Shown: positions 1 through 19,772, counted from the first letter of the stretch. The stretch: DNA of 20,000 bases from an uncultured virus (IMG/VR IMGVR_UViG_2061766007_000502) (IMGVR_UViG_2061766007_000502); one strand, 5' to 3'. The notes: generated from the sequence alone by a model not told the origin. Numbers and translations are program-made.

Positions 1-2341
1 TGAGTTCATTGAGTAAAGCAATGCTTGAGTCTGTTACAGACTGGTTGGATGCAATTGAAGAAACAGAATCATCGATACGGCTTTCAATTTGACTGACCTG
101 TTCATTCAACTGACTTATGATAGCATTATCCGCTGCTTGTCGCTCTTCTGTTTCAGTGTTGATTGCTGAAGCGAGGTCTGCAACATTGTTAGCAATAGAA
201 CGATTTATCGCATTAACAGATACATCAATATGTTCATCAATTGTATTCTTGATGCCATTTATGTAGTTAAGAATAGAAGAGTCTTGTACTTCGCGTTTAT
301 GTGCTTCATTACCTATACTTGTTGTAAGAGCACTTACATTAGCATCAAGACTTCTTTGAAGAGCATTTGTAGAAAGATCAATATGCTCATCCAAATCCTA
401 TTTTATGTCATTTACATAATTGTAAAGAGATGTATCTTCTGCTCTGCGGTTTTCTGTTTCAGTGTTGATAGCAGAAGCGAGATCAGCAGTGTTAGTGAGA
501 ATGGTTCTGTTCAATTCAGTAACAGATTCATTGATACGGCTGTCTATTTCGTTCTTAATTGAAATCAGTTCATTGGTAATAGCATTATCATTAGTCTCAC
601 GGATTCTTGCTTCTTCTTGTATGCTACCGACAATGCTTACTATATCAGCATTATGCTGAGTCTGAATGGCATTAATGGAAGAATCAATATGATGCTCGGT
701 ATTGCTTCTCAAATCACTTATTTCAGTGTGAATAGAACTGTCAGCAATCTGTCTTTCTCTGACTTCAGTAGTAATGGCTGTAAGAATTTCTGCTGTATTA
801 TTGTCAAGTGCTGCATTAACAGTTGTCTCAACAGCATTTATCTGGCTTTCCAAGTCAGTTCTCAATTCTGCCATCTCAGTCATTATAGAAGCATCTTTGT
901 TCTGACGGGCCCTTGCCTCTGCAGTAATGTCTTCTATTAGTGATGTGATGTTTTCATTGATGTTTGAATTGATTTCAGCAATAGAAGAATCGATATGACT
1001 ATTGACTGAATTAATTGAGTTGTTGAGTTCAGTTATAACTAATTCATCACCACTCTGACGTGCATATGCTTCATTTTCAATAGCATTGTCAATAGCAACT
1101 ACTTCATTTTCAATAACAGAGTAAATCTCATTGACAGAAGAGTTTATGTGTTCTTCAATCTCACTCTTGACATCATCTATCTTAGCAAGAATTGTCGCAT
1201 CGCTGTTTTGATAGTCACTGATGACTTCTGTGATTCTGTCATTGACTGTTGATATTGTTGAATCTACTGTTGCCTGTAATGTTGTGACTGATTCATCTAC
1301 ATAATCCTGTACTTCAGTTTTTGTATCAATTAATTTAGAAAGAATTGTTGCGTCATTTTCCTGATAACCGGCTATGACATTGTTAATAGAAGAGTTGATT
1401 GCAGAAACAACATCAGCAATTGAAGTTTCAACAGCATTTATGGAAGAATCGATGTGTGCGTCAATAGAATCTTTAATGCTATTTAATTCTGTACGAATTG
1501 AGTTGTCGCTTTCCTGATAGTCAGTGATTGCATCATTGATTGAGGAATTGATTGAATCAACAGCAGAATTGATAGTAGAGTTGATTTCAGCAATAGAAGA
1601 ATCGATATGACTATTAATCTCTGCCTTATTTGTGTTTATCAGAGTAATGATGGTTTCTTCTGAAGTCTGACGTGAAATCACTTCATATTCGATTGCCTGA
1701 TTGACTTCGGAAATGCTTGTATCAACAGATGCACGCAATGCATTCAATGAATCATCAACCTGATTCTGGATATCTGCTCTGATATCATTCATTTCAGAAA
1801 CAAGAGATGAATCATATGCATTGAAACGTGAGTCCATATTATCAGTGAACTCGGCAAAAGCATTTTCATTTTGTGTGACAAATACATCGAACTGGTTGGT
1901 AATGTCCGTTTTGAACTCAGAAAGACTTGAGTTCACGATATTAGTCACTTCATTGATTGTCTGCTGATTCAGTGTCTGTGTATCATTGATAATCTAAGTC
2001 TGGAGTGTCTCTGCCAACTCTCTTATGCTCTAATCCTATGCATTTATGAGATTGCTAAGATAATCGACTAAATCATCAATCTGTTTGGCATTCTTGAATA
2101 TCTCATTGTAACCGCCAGCCTGTATGGGACCGGCACCAATAAGTGTTGAAATTCCATCATCGGCAGTAGCGTCTTTATAATAAACCACTACGAGTTCACC
2201 GGGATGTAAAATCTTATTTTCCAATTCAGCAACTGCTGTCTCATAGTCTGCGAATGGAATCTTGTTATGAACATGTATAACAGGTGGCAATTCGGTGTGG
2301 ATGTGATTGACACTACCTGCTCCGTATTTCTTATCAGTCAT
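1..2341 (-). CDS. Long coiled-coil protein with 51-aa repeats, putative tail fibre/virion fibre (3' end beyond window; >780 aa with TAG read as sense)
   Basis: ATG at 2341 (MTDKKYGAGS...). Track ORFs 2036..2353 and 398..1948 are in one frame, separated only by TAGs at 2036, 2030 and 1994. After the TAG at 398 the frame stays open to the window edge and the repeat pattern continues (…NDIK*DLDEHIDLSTNAL…). An N-terminal globular segment (LHPGELVVVYYKD) is followed by acidic Ser/Ile/Asn-rich helical repeats. The fibre function is inference. Confidence 0.85.
80..1762 (-). repeat. Eleven tandem degenerate 51-aa (153-nt) repeats, consensus about HIDSSI..I...I......I...I..E...RQ..D..I...L..IK..I..
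   Basis: Units begin QVDDSL, HIDSSI, HIDSSI, YVDESV, HINSSV, HIDSSI, QINAVE, HIDSSI, RINESV, HIDLST and HIDVSV at exact 51-aa spacing. A 12th unit (RIDDSV) starts at 79. A 35-nt exact DNA repeat lies at 969-1003 and 1581-1615 (offset 612 = 4 x 153). Confidence 0.9.
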
Positions 2342-2361
2342 CTTAAATTGCAATTAAAGAG

Positions 2362-2379
2362 ATTTATATTGTATTTATC
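2362..2379 (-). promoter_or_regulatory. Putative late promoter GATAAATA (extended GATAAATACAATATAAAT)
   Basis: The core lies 30 nt upstream of the ATG at 2341. The same 18-mer occurs at 5822-5839 on the + strand. It resembles the T4 late promoter TATAAATA. Confidence 0.7.
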
Positions 2380-2427
2380 TAAACATCAAAAATATCCATA
2401 GAAACAAAGAACAACCGACAAATGCAG

Positions 2428-3006
2428 TCATTTCTTATTGGTTGCATTGCCGGTCTCTTTTGCTTTCTTAGTACTTATCTTATTGTGCTCAATAATTTCT
2501 CTCATAAGCACAGCAGACTAATCAATGTCTTCGTAAAGTTCTATCTGATGAATGATTATCTAGTCATATGCCTGCTTCTCAAAAATTGCTTGCTGTTTAT
2601 ATCTTTCAAGTTCATTTACTATCATAACATCAGATGGATTGTTTTTCTTAATGTAATCTTGAAAAGCATTTATCATGGCAATTGTAACATTGTGTTGTGC
2701 TTCTACCTGTCTTTCGATTGTCCTGAATGATATAACGACATTTTGTATGTCATATGTATATCTGTCAGCAATTATAACAGCACTGTATTTCTCAGCAAGG
2801 TCGTTAACCTCTGACTGTAATGCTTGTAAATCATAAGACATGACCATTCTGGTATAACAGAAATAGATACCACCGACAATGAGAGTAGTGATGAGAGAAT
2901 TCCTAAGCCATTTTGGTATCCCGAACCAAGTTTCTTTAAGGAAAGTAGTGATTTTTTTCAGTGTCTCATTGTCAAGTTTAACTTCTATGGTCTTTATATC
3001 AAACAT
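2428..3006 (-). CDS. Hypothetical single-pass membrane protein with C-terminal helical/coiled-coil domain (192 aa, 2 in-frame TAG)
   Basis: Track ORF 2560..3006 continues through TAGs at 2560 and 2518 to TGA at 2428-2430 (…AYD*IIIHQIELYEDID*SAVLMREIIEHNKISTKKAKETGNATNKK). Hydrophobic segment SLITTLIVGGIYFCY. Confidence 0.8.
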
Positions 3007-3031
3007 TTGTAAGACAAACTTTTAGTTTGAG

Positions 3032-3039
3032 TATTTATC
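3032..3039 (-). promoter_or_regulatory. Putative late promoter GATAAATA
   Basis: TTTAGATAAATAC on the minus strand, 25 nt upstream of the ATG at 3006. Same flanks as the copy at 2372-2379. Confidence 0.65.
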
Positions 3040-3105
3040 TAAAAACATATTCTCAATATAGATGTTTTTTGTTTGGTATTAACATAGTTTTTATGCAATT
3101 GTTTT

Positions 3106-3113
3106 AATAAATA
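3106..3113 (+). promoter_or_regulatory. Possible variant late promoter AATAAATA
   Basis: One mismatch to GATAAATA and 29 nt upstream of the ATG at 3143, the same spacing as the other copies. The AT-rich context makes a chance match possible. Confidence 0.4.
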
Positions 3114-3142
3114 ATTCATAAAATGCATATTGAATTTTAGTT

Positions 3143-4363
3143 ATGCCGGCAACTTAGAAAGACTTGGAAAATATAAAATTCTTTGCTGATGAAAGCATCG
3201 TCACAGAAGAAGCATATGGACTGAATATAGATTAGAACACAGGTGATTGGATGTAGGGTGAGTTTCAGAATGCAAATGAGTATTTGAAGAAATTTGCAGC
3301 ATTTGAGCAGAGTGTATAGATGTTCAGCCAGATTGCTTATAGCGGTGATACCACAGTGATGAATACGGGAACACAGATGACTGCGACTGTCAGAAGCAAA
3401 TATTTCAGTAGAACCGGACAGATAGAAACCGGACAATATGAATGTCCGGTATGCCATAAGAAAGTTGATTAGTTACTGAAGAATGGTTACTGCAGTACAT
3501 CATGCGCATCAAAGGCACATCTGACTATTGCAAAAGCGAAACTGACTTCATCCGCATATCATACTCTGGATATAATAAAGCAAGTCGAAAGTAAGATGAA
3601 TATGCTTGACATGCTGCTGAATCTTGTCACAGAACTTCCGGAACTGATAAGGGGTAAAGCGAAATTGCCATAGCAATACAGAGATTATATAACTTTGAGA
3701 ATAGATTCTATATACATAGAATTGAAAAGGCTTGTCAATGCAGTTATGATAATGAAGAACGAGGCTCTTATAGAACTCATGAAAAAACTGAAGTTCGGTG
3801 TTGTTGATGATGTCATGATGGGAATCCTTGCACCGCTTCAGCCGATTATGCAGGCTGTTATAGCACTACAACAGGCATTGAATGTCGCTATGGCAGCAAT
3901 AGTCGCGCTTCTTAACGTTCCTATGACCGGACTGAAACCTTAGAGTTACGGTTGGCTTATGACTGCAAAGTCAATGCAACAGGCTCTGACTGCGGGAAAA
4001 CTGATAATAGAGATAGTACCGAAAGTGAACATGGCTTTGCCGATGCAGAATATGATGAACAATATGAACTACACTGCGATAGAGCAGATAGTGAGAAAAG
4101 CATTACCGCCTATTACGGAACTTGAGTATTTTCTCGAACCGACTGCATTTAAAGTCAGGTGGGCGTTAAGCAATAACAATGCACCGTTAGTCAAGAAAAT
4201 GTTCCAGATTCTCGAAGGATTGCTTGTAATGGGAGCAGATACATTTCCGAGATACAATCGCCTGAAATTGTCAAATGTGTGGTTTGTTCTGTCTATTCTG
4301 ACAGGCTGGGGACTGCAAAGCAGGGGTGTCTATGGAGACTTTATTTTCCACGGACCAATTTAA
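3143..4363 (+). CDS. Hypothetical protein with CxxC-x12-CxxxC zinc-binding motif and hydrophobic helical C-terminal half (406 aa, 7 in-frame TAG)
   Basis: ATG 3143 (MPAT*KDLENIKFF...) to TAA 4361-4363 in a single frame, with TAGs at 3155, 3233, 3254, 3317, 3470, 3671 and 3941. It includes track ORFs 3695..3943 and 3959..4363. Motif CPVCHKKVD*LLKNGYCSTSC at 3443-3505. Confidence 0.85.
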
Positions 4364-4398
4364 AATCAGTCAATTAAGAGAACAATTGCATTTTCTTC

Positions 4399-4413
4399 AG
4401 TATAATTTTTAGA
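4399..4413 (+). promoter_or_regulatory. Putative early/middle promoter element AGTATAATTTTTAGA
   Basis: Contains TATAAT and is 14/15 identical to 19860-19874. Both copies are intergenic and upstream of + strand genes that do not look structural. Confidence 0.55.
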
Positions 4414-4481
4414 AAAATAGGCCAGAGTGTGCGATGTTTTATCACAAAGCACACATAGAGTGCCGATAATATATTTAAGGT

Positions 4482-5756
4482 ATGGCAAACATTAATACAA
4501 AAAACCTGCTGGTAATAGACTGGTCAAATATTATGTTCCGCAGTCTGTTTATGCACAAGTTGTTCAACAGCAATGCCGGTAGTTATGAACGTATAGAAGA
4601 TTTGCAGTCATTCACTTTCAAATTCGCAATGGATGTCTGTTCTATCATCAATATGTTCAAGCCGAACAGAGTGATTATTGCAACGGACAGTAATCATGCA
4701 TGGAGAAAGGATGTTGATTCGAATTACAAGTCAGGTAGAGAGAAAGATCCGCAAGTCAATTGGGACAATATCTACAAATGCTCTGATGACTTACAGGAAA
4801 TCTTGAGAAAGAACGGAGTGGACATAGCAAATGTGGAGAGAGCAGAGGCTGATGACATAATTGCTATGATTAAGGAAGTTGTGTTCGAGAAGTATCCTGA
4901 GTACAATGTTATCATCATCAGTGCTGATGCTGATATCAGACAGTTGATAGAGTTCAACAAAGAAACCACACAATACTGTATCGTGTATAACACGACAGGA
5001 AGGGGGAAGAACAGTAACCGAAGGATGTATGTCACGCAGGACTTCAAGGACTGGATAGATTCTCCTGATGAATGTGATATATTCTTTGAGAGTTTTGATC
5101 AGCCGAAGAACTATGTCAAGGATTTGCTTCATATGAACTCGATTATAGAGTTGTATGTCGATAATCCTAATGATGTGGTGCTTGGGAAGATTCTGTGTGG
5201 TGATGATGGTGACAGTGTTCCTGCATTCTACGGTTACTATAAGAATGGACGCTATGTGAGAATCACTCCGACAAAATCTGCCAAGATTCTTGATATGACG
5301 AATTCGAGGACTGTGAAGCAGTTATGTGAGAATGTTAACAGATTTCCTGAAGTATTTGAGAAAGTATGTAAGAAGACTATAGATGATATAGATTTTCAAG
5401 AAAGACTTGACAGGCAGAGGACGTTAGTCGAACTGAACAGTAAATTGTTCCCTAAGCATATCAGAGAATATAAAGAGACTATCGACTATATGCTAAGAAA
5501 TGGAGTTTGTAAGACATTCCAGAACTTCAAGGCTGTTGATTTGCTGAAAGGCACGGACTATGAAGGTGCAGACAAGAAAAAAGCACTTGTTGCAGATGTA
5601 TTCAGTGACATACAGAAAAGAACGGGTAACAAGAAAAATCAATCTGAAGAGAAAGTTACGGATAATCTGTTTAATGTGTTCAACCAGACAGGAAAGAATA
5701 TGCTAAACAATAAAAAGAATCCTGATACCGTTTTTTCTATTGATGCACTTTTTTGA
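4482..5756 (+). CDS. rnh: T4-type RNase H / 5'-3' exonuclease (FEN/PIN family), 424 aa
   Basis: Family motifs in order: LLVIDWSNIMFR, IATDS…WRK…YKSGR, AEADDIIA, IISADADIRQL and KILCGDDGDSVP. Ends at TGA and contains no in-frame TAG. Confidence 0.9.
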   Translation: MANINTKNLLVIDWSNIMFRSLFMHKLFNSNAGSYERIEDLQSFTFKFAMDVCSIINMFKPNRVIIATDSNHAWRKDVDSNYKSGREKDPQVNWDNIYKCSDDLQEILRKNGVDIANVERAEADDIIAMIKEVVFEKYPEYNVIIISADADIRQLIEFNKETTQYCIVYNTTGRGKNSNRRMYVTQDFKDWIDSPDECDIFFESFDQPKNYVKDLLHMNSIIELYVDNPNDVVLGKILCGDDGDSVPAFYGYYKNGRYVRITPTKSAKILDMTNSRTVKQLCENVNRFPEVFEKVCKKTIDDIDFQERLDRQRTLVELNSKLFPKHIREYKETIDYMLRNGVCKTFQNFKAVDLLKGTDYEGADKKKALVADVFSDIQKRTGNKKNQSEEKVTDNLFNVFNQTGKNMLNNKKNPDTVFSIDALF

Positions 5757-5779
5757 ATGAGTTTTTATATTGAAAACAG

Positions 5780-5821
5780 AGCCATAATTGCATTATTTGA
5801 TGCAGTTATGGCTTTTTCTTT
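5780..5821 (+). terminator. Rho-independent terminator after rnh
   Basis: AGCCATAATTGCATT-attt-GATGCAGTTATGGCT forms a stem of about 15 bp with two G-U pairs (which pair only on the + strand), followed by TTTTCTTT. Confidence 0.8.
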
Positions 5822-5839
5822 GATAAATACAATATAAAT
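5822..5839 (+). promoter_or_regulatory. Putative late promoter GATAAATACAATATAAAT
   Basis: Starts immediately after the terminator T-tract. The core is 35 nt upstream of the ATG at 5865. Exact 18-nt match to 2362-2379 (minus strand). Confidence 0.7.
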
Positions 5840-5864
5840 TTTTGACAGTCTGTTGCTTTAAGAA

Positions 5865-8800
5865 ATGAATGAAGAATTTCAACTCACTATATGCAATGTA
5901 AATATGCTGGTTAAGAAATTCCTGAAGGAATCACCGGTATTATACAAGCGTTTCAATGGAAGATATGAAGTGGAGAGTGTATCTCTGCTTGATGAGTCAG
6001 TGAAATATTATTATTGTCCTACATATAATGAGATTTGGTAGCAGAAACTGTCAGTGACATTGATAAACACAGAGAACGGGACAAAATAGACATGTAAATT
6101 CAACGGCAAAATTGATTAGTTCCCTATACTTATTGTCAAAGACAACAGCGGACTTGGTGGAGTTCCTTATTACTCAAGGGAAAATGGAAGGAGTCTTGTT
6201 GTCCTTGAGGATATCGAATATAAGTTTGTTCCTGTTAATGTTATTGTTAAACTGAGAGATTTTCAAGGTGCTGTTGTTGCCATAGAAAGACTTGAGACAT
6301 TCGGCGACCCGGAAATAACTGGCAATACTTATGTGTATACAACAAAAACCGTATGTGTAAGCGGTCAGTATCATATATGGATAAAGATTATTGTTCAGGA
6401 TGCTGAAATTTACGAGAAATATAGTTATACAGTCAATTATATGGACCCTGATGCATTGAACTATGTCAGCCGGACTTATAATGTGACAACAAGTCCAATT
6501 GACATAAAGGTTCCTTATGTAGTTGATGATATTACAATTACTGTAGAAGCAACAGAATTACCGAAGACTTATCTGAGTCTTCGTACTTTCGGTAATATCA
6601 GCATTGCAGATTTTAATAATTTCGACAGTAGATTCAATATTGACAATGATGTAAAGTATGTAACTGAAGATATTGGTTATGATGTTAATGAATATGGTCC
6701 ATTATATGTTGTATATGATACCAGTGTTTATGATAAATTGATATGTACTTTCTATCAGAACGGAGAATTGGCAACAGATAACATGATAATGTTTTCATGT
6801 AGTAGTGACAATAGTAACCCAATGACAATGGTATAGGTATGGAAGATGACTGAAACTGGTCCAGCACTAAGTTATGTTCCTACTCAGGCAGTGGGTTCCG
6901 CATCTGCTACATGGGAAGAATTCGGAGATAGAGTTGTAAGTTATATTAATCCTAATGATGGAGATGTCTTCTTATCTGGCACTAATGACTATGATATCTA
7001 TATATATCATGCTGATACTAAGACATGGGTTGGTAAAAATATAAATCTCGGTGATGCTTTATTATATAAGAAATATGCATATATAAAAGTATCAGAAATT
7101 ACTATTTATGAAGATGATCATGGAACAGTATGGACACATGACAGATGGAGAGTAGAAGATAAAATGTCGTTCTTATATCTGATAAGTTCTGTACCGGGCA
7201 GTGACCAGAAAAAATTACCAGCAGGATATCTGCTATATTATCTCGGAGTATAGAATTTGTCTTCTATTGCTCATAATTTGTTAAGACTGCAAGTTCTGTA
7301 GAACAATCATAAACCGACTGTTACTGTGAACATATACAACTATATTGGCGTTGATATTATTATATATGATGATGAGCATCCTTTTCCGGATGGAAAACGT
7401 ACTACATTGTTTACTACTGAACCGAACAAAGATTACTCATTCAGCAGTCTTAAACAGTCAGCAGAATATAAATTAAATGATATTTGTGGATATATTAATA
7501 TAGAACTGCATAATATGCCTCAATAGACTGATATTATCAAAAATTGGTTCTATAAGAAGAATAATATAATGTATGGTTATTTTGAATTGACTGATACAGG
7601 AATATGTACGATAGACGAATTAAGAATAACCACTGACACTACAATAGACATATTTGTCAATAAAATCGTGGGTATCGATATGTTGATGAACACTAATGAC
7701 ACCAATCTTGAGTTGCGTGATGTTATTAAGACAACGTCTTTATATCCGTTAGGTGATTTAGTTGAATGGAATGAGACATATACAACAAAAGTCATTGATG
7801 GTAGTATAGACAGATGGAAATTCCGAATTTGGAAGAAAGAATCTCCTTTTACAAGAATTGCTCCACAAATTCAGATTTTCAAGAATTCTAAGCCGTTAGA
7901 GCGAGTCTGGCCTGAAGTATATCCGACTTACTACGATTTCAATGATGAAGGGTATGTGGATGTTCCTGCATTGGAAACCTACATCAATGAAGACAGAGAA
8001 GTTATCGCAATCACAGATTCTTCTAACATTGATGCTTCTGTCACTGGTGATAATATAGAAATCTTACCATCTATCAAGTCATATGTGATGACGTTCACAG
8101 GACTTTATAAGTTCAGACGCAAGAAAGTCATATTCACTTTGTCATGGAAAAATGATGACGGTTTCTATCCAGAAGATGATGACGGTTTCTATCCAGAACA
8201 TTATAATGAAGATAATAATAATATAATAAAACTCAGTGACTTTGAAATAAGTGCAGACGGTATGACACCGGTTGTATTGCCTAATGAAGAATATCCCGAC
8301 TATAACAGTTGGCCTATATCTAAAATAGACACTACATATTCAAAGAAAATGAGATGGGAGTTTGACCTTCCTACATATCAGTACTACATTACTATCAATA
8401 TAGTTTTTCCGAATAAGAATATACCAGAAGAAGACGAGTATGTAGATTATGACGAACCTACTTATGATAATTATTCATATTATTGTATGTAGAATGGTGT
8501 AAAATATGACTACAAGTCATATTATAATGACGAAGAATCTACTGATATTGAACCGATATCTATAGATAATTCAGCATTAATGGATACAGACTCAAAGACC
8601 ATAACTGTTAAGATTCCTATTACAAGATTCCGTGATTCAGTAAATGATGACGATATAATAGAGATAAATGCAACAAGAGGAACTGTTCAGTTATATGATG
8701 TCACACTTTATCCGGATTAGAATACACATTCAAATGTATTAATTGTCAGAAATGTGGATGTAGATGATGAGAGTTTTAAAAAAGATAAGATAAATCCAGA

Positions 8801-9449
8801 GTCAACAGATAGCGATGTCACGATAAGAACATTAATGAAACATCCGAAGTCATTGAAGATAGAACTGACATCAAAAGATTTGTCAAAATGTCCTACTGGA
8901 CATCTTGTGTATAGTTTGGGCAATAATATTGTTCTTGATGCAATCGTAGCATATCCGTATATGTTATATGTTAATGAAAGCAATTACAAGACATATTTCT
9001 CAAATGATACTGCAAGACTGAGAGTAACCAGTATTGTGCGTTCATACTATATGGAATTCAGTATGCCTGATGATGGACATGATGTAATTGTCAAGAATCC
9101 AACATACGAACGAGACGAATTACTTAATAATCATGCATTTCCACGGAAGAATGGATATTTTTATAGTATGTATCAAACACCGGAAACTACACACAATAGC
9201 ATTGAGATATATGTTGATGTACCACCTGAGAATGCTGATACTTGCATTAATGCAGAGATATATTGTGCTAATAATGTTGATGATTTGTACGACTACCCTG
9301 TATTATATACAAAAGCAAAGTATTACATGAGAGAAAAATATATTGAATGGGTGGTCGGTGATGTTCTTGCTGGTGGTGAGCAATATCATACTACAATACC
9401 ATTTGAAGATGCTGTATGGAGAATTCATTTCTTCACAACAGATGAATAA
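5865..9449 (+). CDS. Large acidic beta-rich putative virion (fibre/appendage) protein, 1194 aa, 9 in-frame TAG
   Basis: ATG 5865 (MNEEFQLTICNV...) to TAA 9447-9449. The five track ORFs at 6333, 6846, 7326, 7569 and 8754 share the frame. TAGs are at 6039, 6087, 6117, 6834, 7251, 7299, 7524, 8490 and 8718. The protein is rich in Tyr/Asp/Ile/Thr and its N-terminal module is paralogous to the next gene. The function is inference. Confidence 0.85.
8152..8198 (+). repeat. In-frame 24-nt tandem duplication (N/D-DDGFYPE x2)
   Basis: ATGATGACGGTTTCTATCCAGAA is identical at 8152-8174 and 8176-8198. Confidence 0.95.
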
Positions 9450-9480
9450 TCATTAAATTAAAAATTTTTGAAAAACGTTT

Positions 9481-12400
9481 ATGGATTCATCAATTGTAGA
9501 TTCATCAATTGCAAATATCAAAAGCATAGTTACAAAATTCTATAAATACAGTCCTTCACTGAAGAACAAGATACAAGAACTCAGCGGCAAAGTCGGTGAC
9601 GAGGCTGCTGCGTGGGCTGCTGATGTAATTGATAACGATTATTGTCCTACACATACTCAGATAGAACATTCATCTATGCTCAGTGCAGCATTACAAAGTG
9701 ATTTAGGAACTCCATTTAATGTATTCTTCAACGGTGAGAAGGGAAATATGCCAAAGTTGAAGATAAACCCTCAAATGTCAATGATTGAGTCACAACCCAA
9801 TTATGCAGACAACAATCTTGTAATGCTTCCGGATATTGAATTTGATCCTCCAAAATATAAGATTACATTTACATTCCACGGATTTGCATACTATGACAAT
9901 CTTGGTAAAGGTAGTTTGGATAGTTCTGTTATAGATTTCTATCCATATCAGGGTACATATCTTTCTAAGGAAATACACGGTACTAAAAATGATATGAGGC
10001 TAACAAATACGAGAATGACATCTGCCGTATATCAGAGAGTGTATGAATATAACGGATATCCAGAACTTCAGTTCAGATTCAAGGGTGTTCATAATGAAGA
10101 TACGCATGAGCGTTATGTGAGACTCCTTGATGCTGACTTTGACAATGTATGGGAACCTGAAGAAAACGATTTCAAATATATCTATAACGATCCGGATAAC
10201 AAATTCATCAATTATTCAATAAAGATAGATGGAAAATATGTAATACTTCCATGTGACAAAGTATTGGATGAACACATATACACATTATCTGATATTGAAG
10301 ATGATATTAATGTTGATGTATATGCGGATGTCAGACGTACGGTTTCTATGAAGATTAACACATATGGAAAACTTGATGTTAATTTGTAGTTGCCTGATAT
10401 GCATAAGCAGTTTGTCAGTTGTGTTCATGATGGTGCAATATCTGATGTGTAGTTTGACATGGGTGTTGTGTTGAAGATTCCTGTTGGAAATGAAAATGAG
10501 TTGATAACAATAGAATCAACACCAAGTTATCATTATTATACTATCAATGGTATAGAAGCAACTGAGGATTTGACTGAATATATTGTGACTGATGATGATG
10601 CAGAACTCGGTTATGTGCCAGTTGTTGCGACAAACAGAGCATACATTCGTACAATAACACTTAAAAGAATGAATGTGGATGAGCGTACTGTGTCTTGGGA
10701 TTGGTCTGATAGAGATAATGTTGATGATGTAGATATCAAAGGTAGAATAGGTGAAATTCCTTCAGATGAAGATAATAATGTTAAAATCTTTGTAGATGCT
10801 ACTTATGGCAGAGCAAGAACATATAACGGTCCAGAAGATGCTGATAGTGTACTGAAAGTTGAATATGGTGCAATACTGAGAATTCCAGTTCGTCATAAGA
10901 ATGATGTTATAACAATACGTTATAACAATGGTACTGATGAAGTTGAGTATATAGCAAATTAGACTGATGCTGATAATCGTTATTATGAAATTTCAACACA
11001 ACCGACTGAGGTATTGAATATACATTCTATTTCAATAAAACAGGTACCATATTATGATGAGAATCTACATAGTGAATATGATATTGTAACTTGGAATTGG
11101 AAAGACGGCAGATTGCCAGTGAAGATTAAGGATAAGGCAGATGTTGTTGAATCCAATAATACTGAAGGTGAACATATAAATCTCGATGTTGATGCTACGT
11201 TGTATGATGATTCCGTATGTATCATCAGGGACCCTAAGAGATACTATATGATGAAGTGTCCGTACTCTAATGTCAATATGTTCAAGTTGAAGATAAAGAT
11301 GACTGAAAACGAAATCGAGAAGCAGAGACAGAAAGATGAGTGTGAATATGAATCTGTTATGTGTACGTTTGCTTATGGTGGTATCTCGCTTGAACCGTTT
11401 GAATTGCCGTTGGGTGCAGTTGACGATGTACTGACTTTGGATAGTAGGACATCATTCCAGAGTGAGACTGGTAAAATCGTGTTCCAGCCTAATGTATCAT
11501 ATTCACTGATATTGAAACTGAAGAAGAAGATGAAGTTCAAGGATATTAAGTTTATCGTCTTGAACAGTGGTGGTGTGTCTAATATTCAGGTATACCATAA
11601 CTACATTCAGTTGAGTCCTATGTTCAATATGTCATCTAACAACATCACATATTCTGTGATACCTACTGAAGATGAGTTGAAGGGTGCCAAGCCTGCATTG
11701 CAGAATATGAGAATAGTACTTCCAGCAAACAGTGCTCTTATTCCAGGCCGTAGTATAGCATGGGATTATATTACTATCGGTAGTGTTCCATATGGCGGTT
11801 ATAGAGTGTATTTCTCTGAAGGTGATGAACACTTTACAAGAAGGACTGATGGTTCGTATGTATATGAAATGCCTCCTTATTATAAGCCTAATCTTGCATA
11901 TGGTGTAACTATATATGCAACATTCGTATCAAATAAGAATGCTGTCTTGAACATAATACGTTATGATACTAATAATGTTCTTGATGTTAAAGGTCGATTT
12001 TATGAGTTAGAAGTATATGACAGTGCAGATTTGACAGAGAAACTTCTTTCTACTAATGAGAATGATTTCAATGATGATGATACTGAAGACTATCCACCAT
12101 ATTCTCTTGAAGCAAAGTCGTATAACCCGAATACCATACATATGACAATAAGAAGATATTAGAATATAGGATAGTTTGGAGAAAGTGAAGAAGACAATTT
12201 GAAATTTGTCTATAGTTATACATTATTAAGAAATGGAGTTGTAGATGAAAGTGCAAGCCATAGCGGTATTATGGGTAATGGTCAATTCATACATCTTAAA
12301 TTTGAAAATTTAAATGGATTTGATAACAATACGCTTAGAATCTGTAGTATGTATTATATACCTATTAAGAAAATCAGTGTATCTATAAGCGGTTATCTTA

Positions 12401-15400
12401 ATCATAATGTTTCATATCCTATAATCAACGACCCTGATGTACATGGTGGACAAGGATATGGTATAATGTATATACACGCCAGAGGTGAAGAATTACCTCC
12501 AATGCGTGCAATTCCTTATTATTTACCAGATGATGAGAATCCTGAAATTGCTTATTATGATTATGATGAGTTTGAAATGCAAACTTTTATGACACCGCAT
12601 TTCAAATTAGATTTTAGTGGTGATACTATCAAGAAATATAGGGGTATACATATTGAAGTAAAACAGTATTATTCTGAAGAAGATTCAGAACCAGGAATTA
12701 CTCCATATTATGAGGATATATTATTAAATGACAATGATACTATATTGGAAATTGACGGTTATGGTATAAGCGCTAATATGTCAAGAATCAAATATGAAAT
12801 TACATTGTTAAAATATGATTAGTATGGACTTAGCATTATATATGATAGATTCTACAGATTAAGATATAATAGACTTTACGATGATGATAGATGGCAGTCT
12901 CTGATAGAATACGATGATTTGTTGGATAGGACCGAGTACAGAGAATTGGTAATAAGTAAAAATCCTAAGATAAGTATCGAGTTCACTCCAATAAGAGATA
13001 GGAGTTTCTTTAGATTATATTATCATCAATTTACTGTTACTGGTATTAACCCTTCTACTGGTTTAAGAGAGAGTATCAATTTGTCTTCTGAAATGGATTC
13101 TTATCGTGTTCCTGGTTCATCTGATACAAGATATAACTTGAATCAGAATTCAACGATGACTGTCATAATACAAATGGAGAATCGCTACAGCAGTGGTACA
13201 TTTAATATATTTACAAAATACAGAGATGTACAATTGAAAGTTCTACCAAATAACAGAGCAGATTATCGTAGAGCATATGTATATCCTGTTCTTGATATCC
13301 AACGTGTATTAAATGAGGGTAATTTTGTTAGAGCTCTATATCCGAAAGAGTATAAGATATGGGATAAGAATAATTCTGACCCTGACCGTAACTCACTTAT
13401 CACTTTAGATACATCTACATTATATACATATAATGATGTTGAATATATAAGATATTATAGTAAAACTCCGTTGGTTTTAAGATATACGGGAGATAACCAT
13501 AATGAAGAATTGTATGTACCAAAGTTCGAAGGTGATAATCTTTCAGTTATTGATGGATATTATACTAATTCTACATACAACAGTTTGAATACATATCTGG
13601 CTCTTGCTGATAGTAATACTGCTCCTATTAACACAAGTGCCGGATTGGGTGTTCCTGATAACGGTTATTGGACTGAAGGTGTTGGTGGTAGAGTAGGATG
13701 GGATTCTGAATTTGGTAAAAAGTTCAGTACTAATCTCCCTCAATTCAGATAGGGTACTGCTAAAGCAGATTGGTTCTCAACTCAGTTGGCAAATACATTC
13801 GGTATTACCAGACCAACAGATTTAGATACATCAACAGATGATATACGTTTGTATTTATATTTGTATATTAATACTACTAATGTGGATTTGACTACATTCA
13901 AAGTTCTGAAGATAAGGGAAATAGAACCATATGAAGTTGATTCATGTACTGGTGCTCATATACATAAAGATATACCATCTTGGGTTCGTGAAGATATTGA
14001 AAATACACTTGTATNNNNNNNNNNNNNNNNNNNAGTGATAAAGCACAGGTGTCATTACAAGAATTAAGAAGAGCAGCATTTGAGCCATTTGAAATAGATA
14101 CATCTGTCGGTCCGGATTTTGAGAATATGTGGGTTTATAATCCATTTTATGGTGAAGATAATATTCCAGAGACTTATGAAGAAGATTATCCTTACTTAGT
14201 TCGAGACCGTCATAGACTTCCTTATGGATATATAAGTACTGGTAAGGAAACATATTTCCGTATAGATATCAGTTGGCTTGATAATAATGGTAATCCATAT
14301 TATAGTTCGCTTCAAGAAGGTGGTGAGCATCATCATCACTTTGTTCCTGCAAATATTTTTGCAGAAGAAGAACAGGATGATGATTGGACTTATGACTGGA
14401 ATGGAGATTTCTTTGAAGTAGTTAGAACTGGTGCTATAGCACCAGACCCGGACCCAATTTGGTCTGACAGTTCATATTGGTATCAGGAATTAGATTATGA
14501 AGAAGACGAACGTACTAAGGAATTGATTCCAGTACTTAAAGAGCCATATAGATGGGCACTCGGAAGTCCAAATGATGGTAATAGTGGTATAGATTCTACA
14601 TATCATCCAGAAGCAACTCATTGTGTAGTTGTCAGATGTAAAAGAACTCTTGAACCAAACCATTATAAACAAAAATGGGAGAAATGGGAACATGGAAGAA
14701 CCGGTTCATTCAACCGTTTAAGGAATTTTATTGGTTTCGGTGAAGGTGAGCACAGTTGGTGGCATGATAAAGTGATAGAATGGGGCAAGATTTCAAAATT
14801 CTGTAATCCATTAATCAATAAAATGATAAGATTCAATAAAGATTTACTATGGAGGCCTCATGCTCAAACTGGTTAGATGGATGATATTGATTTTACTAAT
14901 CTCCCATCACATAATTGTGGTGTTACTGTTACTGAAAATTATGATGATAGAATACAAGTAATTGTTCAGCCTAAAAATATAGTGACATTTAATATTTAGG
15001 ATTGGGCAAATCAGAACGGTATAACAATTAATGAAATTAGTGGTTCTGAGGCTTATTATATTACCAGTGATGAAAGATATGATTATGGAAGTACATATCA
15101 TTTGCTAATGAGTTGCCATTATGCAAAAACCATATTGGATAGTTCTGCATTAACAGCATATTCTCCAAAATTTGGTATACCAATAACTAATGGAAGTTAG
15201 ACTGGTATGAGAGATAATCCTCTGGATGATAATGATATGGGTTTTAAGTATGTTGGAGAAGAATCATTAATAACAGATGGTTTGAAAGTATATTACACTC
15301 GTTATAAAAATAATAATAGTAGTATATATGTTGATGAAATTCCAGCAGACCAATATACTATAGGTAATATATTTACTTTCCCATATAATGAAAATCTTTA

Positions 15401-16265
15401 TCAGCGTGCTATCAATCATAATATAGAACCTGGTAATTAGCATGACATGCCAAGACGATATGAAGATATTGATAATTTAGATGTTAGCAGTGGTTATTAC
15501 TATATACCAATAGAAATCAATGATGGTAGTTCTATAATTAATATGATAGAAGCCGAAAAGGATTTAATCTATACAGGTACACAACAAAAAATGGTTATGA
15601 TATTTGATAAGTATGGTGTCAGAGCAAGATATGAAATACCAATAAATTACATTAAGCCTGGAACTGAAATAAGATATCTTAGAATACAATATTATGTAGA
15701 TGATAGTGCTCATCCAGGTACAGTTGCATTTATAGAGGAAACTGGCCCAGGTAGTTATAATGAAATATTAAGTTCTGTATGGAACCATATGTTCTATATG
15801 AGTGAATCAGATGGTCCGGCAAATCCTCGAAATTATCCAGAACCTCTATCTTTCCAAATCCAGCAACAAGATTGGAATTATTTGGACGGATATAGAAAAA
15901 GAACCGAAGGTGTATATTATTGGGATGATGAAGACCGAATGATATATCCTTATCAAAATAAAATCAATCTACCAAACTTCATTGAAGTTACAAAAACAGT
16001 TAGTAATTCTCAAACGGTTTATACTTTACCTATTGGTTATTATAGTAGTACTATTAATCAGAGAACAACTGAAATTTCAGAAGGTCAACGAATAGGTATA
16101 TATATATTCCATGAAAAGTATGGAGATGAAAGAAAATATTTGGTTGGAGCAGTAGATTTTCACTGGAATCAATGTATGGAATAGAGTGAATTCTTGGCTA
16201 AATATACTGATTTTAATACACTTGGTCAATATTATTATATGCCATTAGTTGGTAAATTACCTTAA
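9481..16265 (+). CDS. Giant putative virion (fibre/appendage) protein, about 2260 aa, 12 in-frame TAG, spans an assembly gap
   Basis: The frame is open from ATG 9481 to the N gap (TAGs at 10387, 10450, 10960, 12160, 12172, 12820 and 13750). A second frame is open from 14034 to TAA 16263-16265 (TAGs at 14874, 14997, 15198, 15438 and 16182). The frame change falls exactly at the gap. Two separate genes cannot be excluded if the true gap is long. Confidence 0.75.
14015..14033. other. Assembly/scaffold gap (19 N)
   Basis: Run of N in the sequence. Confidence 1.
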
Positions 16266-16280
16266 TGAACATAAAAATGA

Positions 16281-16311
16281 AAAAGAGAGGATTTCTAAAA
16301 TCCTCTCTTTT
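16281..16311. terminator. Bidirectional intrinsic terminator between convergent genes
   Basis: Perfect 14-bp inverted repeat AAAAGAGAGGATTT-cta-AAATCCTCTCTTTT with A- and T-tracts on either side. It lies between the TAA at 16265 (+) and the TAA at 16314 (-). Confidence 0.9.
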
Positions 16312-16313
16312 CT

Positions 16314-17036
16314 TTATGTATTGTTTCTGTTCTTATTGACTGTTGCTCTTGTGAAGTCAATCAAATCAGTTCCGTTGTATATACAGTTGGATTCGGATAG
16401 ACTTGTCATTGCCTGATTCAGTATTGTCTGTACTGACCTGTTCACATCATCTGCAGTTCTTGCTGCTGTGTTAGCAGACTGTATTCCGCTGTCTTCACCG
16501 AAATACATCTTTCCATTTCTTATAGTGACTGCTGTCCTTCCGTCTTCTGATATGTAGGGAACCATATAACTGCCATCCAAATCTTCTCTGTTTATGATTC
16601 CCGATTTTATATCCATGTTCTTCAGGTTGTCATAACTCGTCTTATCCGGCTTATATTCCTGATTCACAAACTTGAAGTAGTTCCTTATTTGTGCTTCCAC
16701 TCCATTTCTGTTGTCGGCATTGTTATCATCATTGTTGTATGCCATCATACCAATCATCTGCTAATCATTAGGAATCATCAGAACATCATCATCATCAAGA
16801 GTGAAAGGATTGCTTATACCTGAAAATTTCAAGATGAACTCTGTATATTCATCAGTCTCATATGCAGCCTATGAAACCAAATCAGGTCTCATATGGAACA
16901 TCTTGTCCATACGGACTACCTCATAGTCATGTACCTGTCCGGCATTGCGACTGAATATGCTTGTGGTAAGATCGACAATCGTATTGCCGTTCCTGTCCTA
17001 TATCTCTTTCTTGTTATCTATAGAATACTTAAACAT
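16314..17036 (-). CDS. Baseplate wedge protein, T4 gp53-like (LysM-type domain), 240 aa, 3 in-frame TAG
   Basis: ATG 17036 (MFKYSIDNKKEI*DRNG...), TAGs at 16998, 16869 and 16761, TAA at 16314-16316. The segment RPDLVS*AAYETDEYTEFILKFSGISNPFTLDDDDVLMIP (16770-16889) matches the gp53/LysM-like pattern RPD.I...Y......IL..N.I.NPF.L.....L.IP and is absent from the standard-code ORF. Confidence 0.75.
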
Positions 17037-17042
17037 AAGAAA

Positions 17043-19772
17043 TTAATTATTGCTGCGTTTTCTGGTGAACAGATTGCCTCTGATTATGCTGCGGACATTA
17101 TCATCAGATAGGAATCCGTTATAGTATTTGCTGTTAACTGTCTGGTATGCAGCCTGTCTGTCGATTGGTGAGAATTTCGGAATCAACACAGTATCAGCAT
17201 TTCCTGTATTCTGTAAGTTCTTAGCATTGCTGATTTTATATGTCTGATAGCCTTTTGCACCATTCAGAGCCATTAATTTAGTTGCATGCATATACTGAGG
17301 ATGCATATACGGTTCCATTCTGCCTGTGAAGTTATCTACTTTCGTTTCATAATCAGACGTTGCTTTTATGTAGTCAGGTAACTTGTATATCTTTCCGGCA
17401 CCGCGATTGAACATAGACTGAATGCCAGCCTTGTCTCTTGCCATAGCATGCTCTATCGTATATATAACTTTCATTGACAGCGGGAAGTCATCAGGACCGA
17501 GTTCATCATCAAACTGAACATCCATCTTAGTGCAGATGAGGTTTCCTACAACCATAATAGGATTAAGCGGATTACCCAATGTCAGATGCCAGTTACCGGT
17601 CGGCTCTCCAGTCAGAATGGATTTCATACCGCTTATATTAGGCATAGTAGTCTCTTGAATCACCTGATCTTTCCACATCTTGTTAAGATTAGATAACATT
17701 GATGTCAGTTTTGCTGTTCCTTTTGCCTGAGCTTCTTCACTTGAAACAAAATCTGTTCCGCTCTTTATCCAACTTGTCAATTTTGAAGACTCGCCGAACA
17801 ATGTTGAAGATACACTCTGAAGCATATTACCGATACCGCCGAGTGTTTGACTGAGAATCTCAGCAAGATTGCCTGTCACATTACTCCATTCAAATGAAGT
17901 GGTCTTACCGTCTTTACCCTTTGTGCCGAATTCTTTCAATCCTTCAAAACCGCGTGCTATTGCACCTTCTGTACCAAATATCTTTCCGGCAAATAAAGCA
18001 TCCATTACAGAACCGCTTATAGACTCTCGCTTAAACGGATACATATGCGGATGTATCATAAATCTATAACCACCACCCCAGAATACTGCTTCCGGTGATG
18101 CAAGTTCAAGCGCATTAGCAAGAATATCAAGCATAGCAGCTTTTGTATTGACACCACCAATAGGTCTTGCTACATATTCACAAGTCAAAGAGAAAGACTA
18201 TGAGAACTCTATTCCGGCTTCTCTTGCCTTGACAGACTGAACACGATTGACAGGACCAATAATCCTGTTGCTGAATAGAGATTCTTGAGGGTCCATATTA
18301 GCACTTGTCAGTTTTTCCCAAGCAGTCTGTCCATGACCGCTGAATCCCTACGGGTCAAGCAATCCCAAAAATTTACCGAATGATAGGAACTTGCCTGTTA
18401 AACCGCCGGTTTGTCCCAAGAATGAACTGACTATATCTGAACGTGATGAAACACCACCGAAACCGCCTTTCTCAAACATAGAATCAACAACAGCACGCGG
18501 ATTGCTGCCTGTATCACCACTGACCTGATGAATATCAGCATTTATATCTTTCCATCTCGTTCCTGTTGTGAACTTTAAGAAATCACTCAATTTGTTAGCA
18601 GACTCTCCGCCGAAATAAGTCACAGCAGTCGCAATGGGAGCAGTAGTCTTTTGAACACTGGATTTCTGCTGCTTGCTTCTGTCTATTTCAGTTTCCATTC
18701 CAGGGAAGTTGAGATTGTCATAAGTCGGTGTCGCATACTTACGGAATGTAATAAGCCTGTTGTTCGGTATAATGTTCCACCACTTACAGAATACGAAATC
18801 CTAAAAACTATACGGTGTCCTACCAAACCTGTCCTTGTTACTCCATGCTATGATGTTTGTTGTAGTCGGATTGTTGATGCTTGTCATATCATCAGGAGTC
18901 TATATTATTCCGCCACGACCTTCACCGACATTGTCATAGAATCTCTTAGTGTCTCTTATATCATAGAGATTGGAGCGTAATGAAGCAGACTTTCCATTTG
19001 AAGCATCATATGCACTTACCTATGTCAAACCGCCGACAAGCCGTGTCACACAATACGGATTCATTAAAGATGCAGTACCGTACATATCAGGATCAGCAGA
19101 CAATTCAGCAACCTGTGTCTTGTTCGGAGTCACTTTATCAGAATCTTTCGGATCAGAGAACTTGAACTCTTCATCAGTAGATGTTCCGCTTACGGTCTTA
19201 TTAGAAGACTTGACATTCTTAGTCATATCTATAACACCCTTTTCAATACTGAACAATTCAGAGAAGAAAGCAGACGATGCTGTCTCTGATGCGAATGGTA
19301 CTATAATATTACCTTCTCTGCTCTATGAAGTAGATACGAATGCATCAATTCTGATAAGTCTCGGATCCCATGCACCTATATTATTAGTGGAATTTTCTTC
19401 ACTGATGTCAGTATTGGCAATATAATTACCATTACTGATATTTGATGAATATATAGTATTCTTATTCAGTGATTCAACAACTTCACCACCGCCAAACTAC
19501 ATTCCATTAGCCATAGTCTGTATGAGACTCTGCATATTCTCATTCTGTTCGTCGTTCAACTGACTGATATTATAATCTGTTATTGCATTCTATCGGTCTT
19601 CATCAGAAAAATTAAAACCAAAGAGACTTGATATTGATGAAGCACCGAATGTCATCTCCCTTGTGGGAGATGATGTCTCAGTTTCATCCGTTGTAGTATG
19701 TACATGCTCCGTTGAATGATTATATGACTTCTTCTTGTTTATGAGTTTCAGTGATTTAGCAGTCTGTGACAT
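17043..19772 (-). CDS. Large structural protein, possibly baseplate hub/tail-tube initiator (gp48/gp54-like fold), 909 aa, 8 in-frame TAG
   Basis: Track ORFs 19590..19772, 19020..19256, 18348..18698 and 17043..18188 form one frame. It is interrupted only by TAGs at 19590, 19497, 19323, 19020, 18900, 18801, 18348 and 18198, and ends at TAA 6 nt before the gp53-like ATG. Conserved-looking blocks: DFVFCKWWNIIPNNRLITFRKY and WHLTLGNPLNPIMVVGNLICTKMDVQFDDELGPDDFP. The CDS is secure; the function is inferred from context. Confidence 0.75.

Follow-up and report, generated by a model that had tools for sequence, protein, structure and literature searches.

Reassignment of the stop codon TAG to glutamine is already established for the Lak megaphages (Prevotella phage Lak-A1, A2, B1-B9 and C1; code 15; proposed 'Grandevirales'). 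In the part of Cook et al. considered here, Lak phages are reported to reassign TAG to Gln, with a coding capacity over 23 genomes that rises from 69% with table 11 to 89% with table 15; Lak genomes are given as about 476-660 kb, and the alternative code is described as common to all members of the 'Grandevirales'. The same codon is read as the same amino acid in crAss-like and other gut phages, according to the portions of Borges et al. 2021/2022, Peters et al. 2022 and PMC9523058 considered here. Here we analysed a stretch of 20,000 nucleotides from an uncultured virus (IMG/VR IMGVR_UViG_2061766007_000502), referred to below as the window, in which genes on both strands contain in-frame TAG codons. 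We consider it, with a probability of roughly 0.88, to be a gene block, largely coding for virion proteins, of an uncultured giant phage from the cattle gut, which would belong to a sister lineage of Lak, read UAG as glutamine (NCBI table 15) and terminate translation only at UAA and UGA.

As in Lak, in-frame TAG occurs throughout the genes of the window, and the proteins of the two are related at 47-49% (g9, all 15 Lak records of the phage collection), 48% (g8), 59% (g4, Lak-A1) and 31-32% (g3) identity, which upholds the comparison with Lak megaphages made in an initial annotation of the window. The ORF (open reading frame) cover of Lak loci about doubles, from 41-45% to 82-87%, when TAG is read as sense. 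The window differs from Lak-A1 in GC content (35% versus 26%) and in gene order: g3-g4 and g8-g9 both lie within its 20 kb, whereas the two pairs are ~315 kb apart in Lak-A1 and ~50 kb apart in the more closely related phage G003, so the genome appears to be strongly rearranged. Counterparts of g2, g6 and g7 were not found in Lak-A1 by tblastn, nor was a Lak counterpart of g5. The source habitat is the bovine gut by the run records. With the recoded crAss-like and other gut phages, the window has in common that recoding falls mainly in structural and lysis genes, by the portions of Borges et al. and PMC9523058 considered here, but those phages belong to unrelated lineages with much smaller genomes than the window phage. 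Metaproteomic support for the code is reported, in the sources as considered here, for two crAss-like phages, whereas the window phage is known here from sequence alone.

TAG as a sense codon in the window

Under code 11, the window breaks up into 51 ORFs of at least 60 amino acids, the longest of which has 516. With TAG read as Gln it resolves into nine long ORFs, designated g1 to g9 (Table 1), which cover 96% of it. Their 6,397 codons include 45 TAGs, distributed over both strands as 4, 2, 7, 0, 9, 7, 5, 3 and 8 in g1 to g9, and neither an internal TAA nor an internal TGA; in the two off-frames of these nine genes there are 436 TAA and 656 TGA (1,092 together) and 187 TAG. The initial annotation had counted 45 in-frame TAGs on both strands and stated that the breaks between fragments are always TAG and never TAA or TGA. 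Both points hold, and all of the coordinates that it named (398, 3470, 6039, 6087, 6117 and 16869) match. Its figure of seven TAG-bearing genes is correct if g6 and g7 are counted as one gene; by the nine-ORF count, there are eight.

A comparison of coding density between the codes, proposed with that annotation, revealed a gain specific to TAG. Coverage by stop-to-stop ORFs of at least 150 amino acids increased from 68% under code 11 to 97% with TAG as sense, compared with 79% and 80% in controls in which TGA or TAA, respectively, was treated as sense, and it was only the reading of TAG as sense that lengthened the longest stop-to-stop ORF, from 531 to 1531 codons. Seven gene ends are visible in the window, five of them TAA and two TGA, and strong terminator-like hairpins follow g4 and lie between g7 and g8, in keeping with the earlier description of genes that end in TAA or TGA near terminators. 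As code 15 demands, TAG alone among the stop codons occurs in frame in conserved genes, and reading it as sense restores the coding density; in the window, TAG is a sense codon.

Because table 11 does yield ORFs, TAG could in principle still be a stop codon, with the fragments representing separate short genes, decaying pseudogenes or pieces joined by rare readthrough. This is difficult to reconcile with 45 breaks that all consist of the same codon, in frame and without gaps, and with relatives in which the same proteins are uninterrupted. The closest complete relative, G003 (locus L018), is a 673,114-bp IMG/VR phage contig with direct terminal repeats and a GC content of 41%. It encodes uninterrupted counterparts of g4 (66% identity), g8 (61%), g9 (55%), g3 (50%), g2 (38% over 165 amino acids) and g1 (32% over 423 amino acids). 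Alignments of g9 cross the TAG sites over residues 5-909 in G003, 134-908 in Lak and 1-909 in the related locus L125, and the alignment of a database protein of 2261 amino acids, P0121, covers every one of the 12 TAGs in g6 and g7. Homologues that end at the TAG positions, which the initial annotation had named as potential counterevidence, were not seen among G003, Lak, the six metagenome relatives L121-L126 and P0121, all of which align across them.

Variation among wild strains provides a further line of evidence against termination. Sequencing runs of ~10 studies, mostly labelled bovine gut, contain this phage or strains almost identical to it, with two runs covering the window in its entirety, and contigs from three runs of three other studies cover g8-g9 at 90-99% identity. 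These contigs differ from the window at 95 sites in all, and codon positions were counted for 40 listed differences: in the read-through frame, 37 of the 40 are third-position changes (binomial p = 7e-15). No TAG codon is affected by any of the 40, and 35 of them are located 3' of all the TAGs in the gene concerned. This third-position excess among the listed differences indicates that purifying selection acts on the read-through frame 3' of the TAGs. Moreover, at three sites (codon 92 of g8 and codons 324 and 525 of g9, hereafter g8-92, g9-324 and g9-525), TAG is shared with 9-10 of 13 TAG-recoded loci, among which are Lak phages at 48% identity. Set against these observations, the view that TAG terminates translation in this phage is scarcely tenable.

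The residue at TAG and its decoding

For the identification of the residue, only relatives available at the DNA level were used, so that the codon opposite each TAG was visible, and the relatives' own in-frame stops were masked. At the 22 TAG sites that could be aligned to G003, the opposing residue was Gln in eight cases, all encoded by CAA or CAG, Asn in four, Lys in two, and Glu, Pro, Ala, Tyr, Leu, Ile, Ser and Met in one each; the background of Gln among aligned G003 residues is 3.0%. An empirical likelihood calculated with substitution frequencies from the G003 alignments ranked Gln first by 16.9 nats, ahead of Asn by 19.5 nats and of Leu, which came last, by 54. TAG behaves much like a Gln codon in this comparison, since Gln stands opposite 36% of the TAG sites and opposite 29% of the CAA and CAG codons of the window. 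In the conserved contexts CHKKVD-Q-LLKNGY, RTPYSF-Q-DFVFCK, AGIEFS-Q-SF, RPDLVS-Q-A and P-Q-SYGWLM, the G003 partner of TAG is always Gln.

A second test used profiles built from 1 to 84 homologues per gene, scored as log-odds against background, with the 57 sense codons as a positive control. It decoded 56 of the 57 correctly and assigned TAG (n = 18) to Gln, the margin being 6.8 nats under default weighting and 19.7 nats when entropy weighting was omitted. Among the six nearest relatives, all six have CAA or CAG at g9-324 and all six have CAG at g9-525, giving a Gln codon in all 12 cases at these invariant sites; at codon 56 of g8, the four covering relatives have CAG in three cases and TAG in one. 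Taken together, three concordant tests indicate that TAG encodes glutamine, the residue that had been proposed from the window alone. The tabulation of residues opposite TAG, suggested at that time, places Gln far above chance; the proximity of many TAGs to CAA or CAG codons, which had also been offered as support, is no evidence in itself.

Database proteins were not counted as evidence for glutamine, as their use would be circular. P0001, which is 98% identical to g9, has Gln at seven of the eight TAG sites and Glu at one, from which it appears that the collection was translated with TAG as Gln. The near-invariance of Q324 in alignment A1 and three Gln residues of P0121 were set aside as likewise circular.

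With respect to decoding, the relatives and the literature suggest that UAG would be read by a phage suppressor tRNA, that this tRNA would be charged by glutaminyl-tRNA synthetase, and that a phage release factor 2 may assist. The whole Lak-A1 record contains 32 tRNA genes, two of which have the anticodon CUA, and the Lak-A1 tRNA nearest to one of these two is tRNA-Gln(CUG). ARAGORN also calls a tRNA with the anticodon UUA, which would read TAA, at 290204-290276 of Lak-A1. The portion of Borges et al. considered here reports suppressor tRNAs in recoded phages and release factor 2 in six Lak genomes, and describes only TAG-to-Gln and TGA-to-Trp reassignments where the code of a phage differs from that of its host. 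In the model put forward there, recoding delays the expression of late and lysis genes. If a suppressor tRNA is needed to read TAG, it follows that the TAG-bearing late genes of the window (seven or eight of eight or nine) would be fully translated only after that tRNA has been made; the support that the window gives to such gating is weak.

Several observations weigh against glutamine and against the proposed decoding. The gating step leans on a single TAG-free gene, the replication-type exonuclease g4, in which ~3 TAGs would be expected and none would occur with a probability of ~0.04, and the Lak-A1 homologue of g4 has two in-frame stops. No tRNA gene was found in the 20 kb of the window, and an exact 40-mer of the window had no match in the viral and metagenome contig collections; the suppressor tRNA, release factor 2 and glutaminyl-tRNA synthetase of this phage are thus predicted from relatives and the literature. 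With regard to the residue, G003 has an amino acid other than Gln at 14 of the 22 aligned sites. In distant standard-code relatives, g9-324 is Ser in 19, Thr in 18 and Gln in 13 of 60, and g9-525 is His in 23, Asn in 18 and Gln in 10 of 61. The gene g5 has no relatives, and its nine TAGs therefore lie outside the homology comparison. Finally, a variant of the profile test that used raw emissions without background assigned TAG to Glu by 0.1 nat, with Glu and Lys level with Gln.

The last observations would fit a sense codon that specifies another residue, such as Leu, Glu, Lys, Asn, Tyr or pyrrolysine, the more so as Asn and Lys recur opposite TAG in G003 and ARAGORN labels the Lak CUA tRNAs 'Pyl', a label given purely by anticodon. 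The raw-emission test, however, failed its own control: it decoded 52 of 57 codons, with CAA, CAG, ATG, CAT and CGC miscalled, and CAA and CAG were themselves called Glu. The background-corrected profile test and the empirical likelihood both separate Gln clearly from its competitors, the genuine Gln codons of the window are conserved in G003 even less often than TAG is matched by Gln, and the nearest relatives have only Gln codons at the invariant sites. The mixed residues in distant relatives match the generally poor conservation of Gln. A residue other than glutamine is thus very unlikely.

Glutamine could also be inserted without a phage tRNA(CUA), either because the host reads TAG as sense or because the phage modifies a host tRNA or release factor 1. 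The lack of a tRNA gene in the window would be in line with this route, as would the statement in the available part of Borges et al. that TAG suppressor tRNAs occur in just 40% of TAG-recoded genomes. On the other hand, the window amounts to less than 5% of a genome of the size found in its relatives (541-673 kb), the closest named relatives carry tRNA(CUA), and the Lak hosts are reported in the same part of Borges et al. to be standard-code Bacteroidetes. We regard this route as unlikely and retain a phage suppressor tRNA as the probable means by which UAG is read as glutamine.

Gene content of the window

The features of the window are listed in Table 1. Searches of Pfam and PHROGs with the window genes gave a name only to g4 (Pfam PF02739, E 4.4e-21), which is also the sole long gene without an in-frame TAG, and produced weak matches for g1 and g8. 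The sole Rfam match at E up to 0.1, rliD at 9411-9491, scored 23 bits, below the gathering score of 50, and was taken as a chance match.

Table 1. Positions of genes, in-frame TAG codons and other features in the window
Feature	Position	Strand	Description
g1	2-2353	-	784 amino acids in window; 3' end beyond window start; coiled-coil with 51/102-amino-acid repeat; four in-frame TAGs
g1 in-frame TAGs	398-400, 1994-1996, 2030-2032, 2036-2038	-	
g2	2428-3006	-	192 amino acids; no assigned function; TGA end
g2 in-frame TAGs	2518-2520, 2560-2562	-	
g3	3143-4363	+	406 amino acids; CxxC...C cluster; TAA end; seven in-frame TAGs
g3 in-frame TAG starts	3155, 3233, 3254, 3317, 3470, 3671, 3941	+	
g4	4482-5756	+	424-amino-acid 5'-3' exonuclease (FEN-type); TGA end; no in-frame TAG
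Terminator-like hairpin	5778-5815	+	17 pairs, then T run; directly 3' of g4 stop
g5	5865-9449	+	1194-amino-acid orphan; TAA end; nine in-frame TAGs
g5 in-frame TAGs	6039, 6087, 6117, 6834, 7251, 7299, 7524, 8490, 8718	+	
g6	9481-14067 (ORF call); 9481-14014 (coding up to N run)	+	First ~1510 codons of predicted giant gene; seven in-frame TAGs
g6 in-frame TAGs	10387, 10450, 10960, 12160, 12172, 12820, 13750	+	
N run	14015-14033		19 N; at g6/g7 junction
g7	14049-16265 (ORF call); 14034-16265 (from N run)	+	Last ~740 codons of predicted giant gene; TAA end; five in-frame TAGs
g7 in-frame TAGs	14874, 14997, 15198, 15438, 16182	+	
Bidirectional terminator-like hairpin	16281-16312	both	Between convergent g7 and g8 ends
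g8	16314-17036	-	240 amino acids; LysM-like N-terminal domain; TAA end
g8 in-frame TAGs	16761-16763, 16869-16871, 16998-17000	-	
g9	17043-19772	-	909-amino-acid conserved virion (baseplate-neighbour) protein; TAA end; eight in-frame TAGs
g9 in-frame TAGs	codons 61, 92, 150, 251, 291, 324, 475, 525	-	

The weak matches of g1 are to a tape-measure-like PHROG and to Pfam coiled coils. Several weak paralogous matches to g1 lie at 115-143 kb and 232 kb of Lak-A1. Within the phage collection, g3 matches only Lak records (all 15), whose copies carry in-frame TAGs, whereas the G003 copy has no stops. The initial annotation had located particular TAGs inside protein motifs, and most of these placements could be reproduced: the TAG at 398 is codon 652 of g1 and falls in the register of its 51/102-amino-acid repeat, the TAG at 3470 is codon 110 of g3 and lies in the zinc-finger segment CPVCHKKVD-X-LLKNGYC, and those at 6039, 6087 and 6117 are codons 59, 75 and 85 of g5, within an N-terminal module common to g5 and g6. 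The placement of the TAG at 16869 in a gp53-like LysM motif was correct as to the gene, g8, while the LysM label itself is weakly supported and remains plausible rather than established.

The module shared by g5 and g6 has 28% identity over 116 amino acids (E 2e-8). Beyond it, no homologue of g5 with a length of 656-2090 amino acids was found among 5.8 billion proteins, and no match to g5 was found in 10 related phage records. Such a pattern might reflect fibre or receptor-binding proteins that can be exchanged on a shared anchor.

The ORFs g6 and g7 are separated by a run of 19 N, and with the present length of this run their frames are not joined, as the codon starts at 14011 in g6 and 14034 in g7 are 23 bases apart. 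P0121 matches g6 with its residues 1-1498 (63% identity) and g7 with its residues 1516-2260 (43% identity, E 6e-160), spanning the gap with 17 residues, and it is the sole match to g7 among 1.84 billion representatives. Because this only homologue of g7 covers g6 and then g7, we take the two ORFs to be one gene of ~2,260 codons that is split by the N run.

The gene g8 is probably a baseplate protein. Its PHROG match is weak (phrog_15542, E 2.5e-7), and four of the 38 members of its family match Pfam LysM, with a best E of 0.011. The fold model has a mean predicted local distance difference test (pLDDT) score of 69 and exceeds 85 across most of residues 11-90. Its best Foldseek matches are short and weak (best E 0.03, 66 columns); the structural neighbours comprise baseplate chains of phage P1, contractile injection systems and cyanophage A-1(L), as well as LysM domains. 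For g9, 324 database homologues were found, with 47-49% identity to the Lak records extending over 85% of the length, 51-65% identity to L121-L126, and weaker matches in Flavobacterium, Tenacibaculum and other phages. Sequence searches of the PDB with g9 (profile A1) and g8 returned nothing at E up to 1.

Position relative to Lak and lability of the code

The position of the window phage was estimated from a neighbour-joining tree of a single gene, g9, with 54 sequences, 510 columns and 100 bootstraps. The window clusters with L125, L123, G003, L121/L122, L124 and L126 (bootstrap 100), and this clade is sister to Lak A/B/C (bootstrap 96); the TAG-recoded loci L015/L016/L017/L020 fall outside both (98), and L021 lies farther out (93). 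The identity ranks of g3 and g4 agree with the tree, as G003 is closer to the window than Lak, and Lak closer than G007, the contig of L021. On this basis, the window phage would belong to a sister lineage rather than to Lak A, B or C.

G003, in contrast to the window, uses the standard code: its shared genes contain no in-frame stops, its ORFs do not grow when TAG is read as sense, and 65 of its 470 ORFs of 200 amino acids or more end in TAG. Five tRNAs were found in G003, none with the anticodon CUA. The use of TAG across the clade is heavy in the window and L125, light in L123, L124 and L126, and absent from G003. An alternative code is accordingly found in the window, as expected of 'Grandevirales' members, but not in its clade-mate G003. 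G003 nests in the clade with bootstrap 100, whose other assessable members, like the sister clade (Lak) and the next outgroup, all have in-frame TAG, although its exact place inside the clade is poorly supported in this single-gene tree (bootstrap 37-69). Since a standard-code phage nests among TAG users, the tree would imply either that the standard code was regained once or that the reassignment arose independently several times.

The part of Borges et al. considered here states that several codes may coexist within one clade and calls a way back to the standard code possible; our literature search found no paper on a recoded phage that reverted to the standard code. We offer only tentatively, and as a doubtful possibility, that the window comes from a rumen lineage, so far undescribed and of higher GC, that is sister to Lak and has a labile code; the most parsimonious history would then be the reversion of a megaphage from code 15 to the standard code.

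A different codon appears to be affected in L021. At 4001-6427 of this locus, a homologue of g9 contains three in-frame TGAs, two of which align with columns that are fully or almost fully conserved as Trp (window positions 316 and 407). Because of these two positions, TGA may be read as Trp in the L021 lineage, a relative of the Lak group.

The reassignment of TAG to Gln in Lak-type megaphages has already been published, and no new principle is involved here. In practical terms, gene callers that use table 11 would fragment the genes of the window, including the giant gene of ~2,260 codons, and table 15 is needed for the annotation of this phage because table 11 shatters its genes. What the window contributes is a divergent lineage from the cattle gut together with a standard-code relative that is 50-66% identical in four genes, which permits a site-by-site comparison of the two codes. 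The pair formed by the window phage and G003 could therefore serve the study of how the reassignment of a stop codon is gained or lost.

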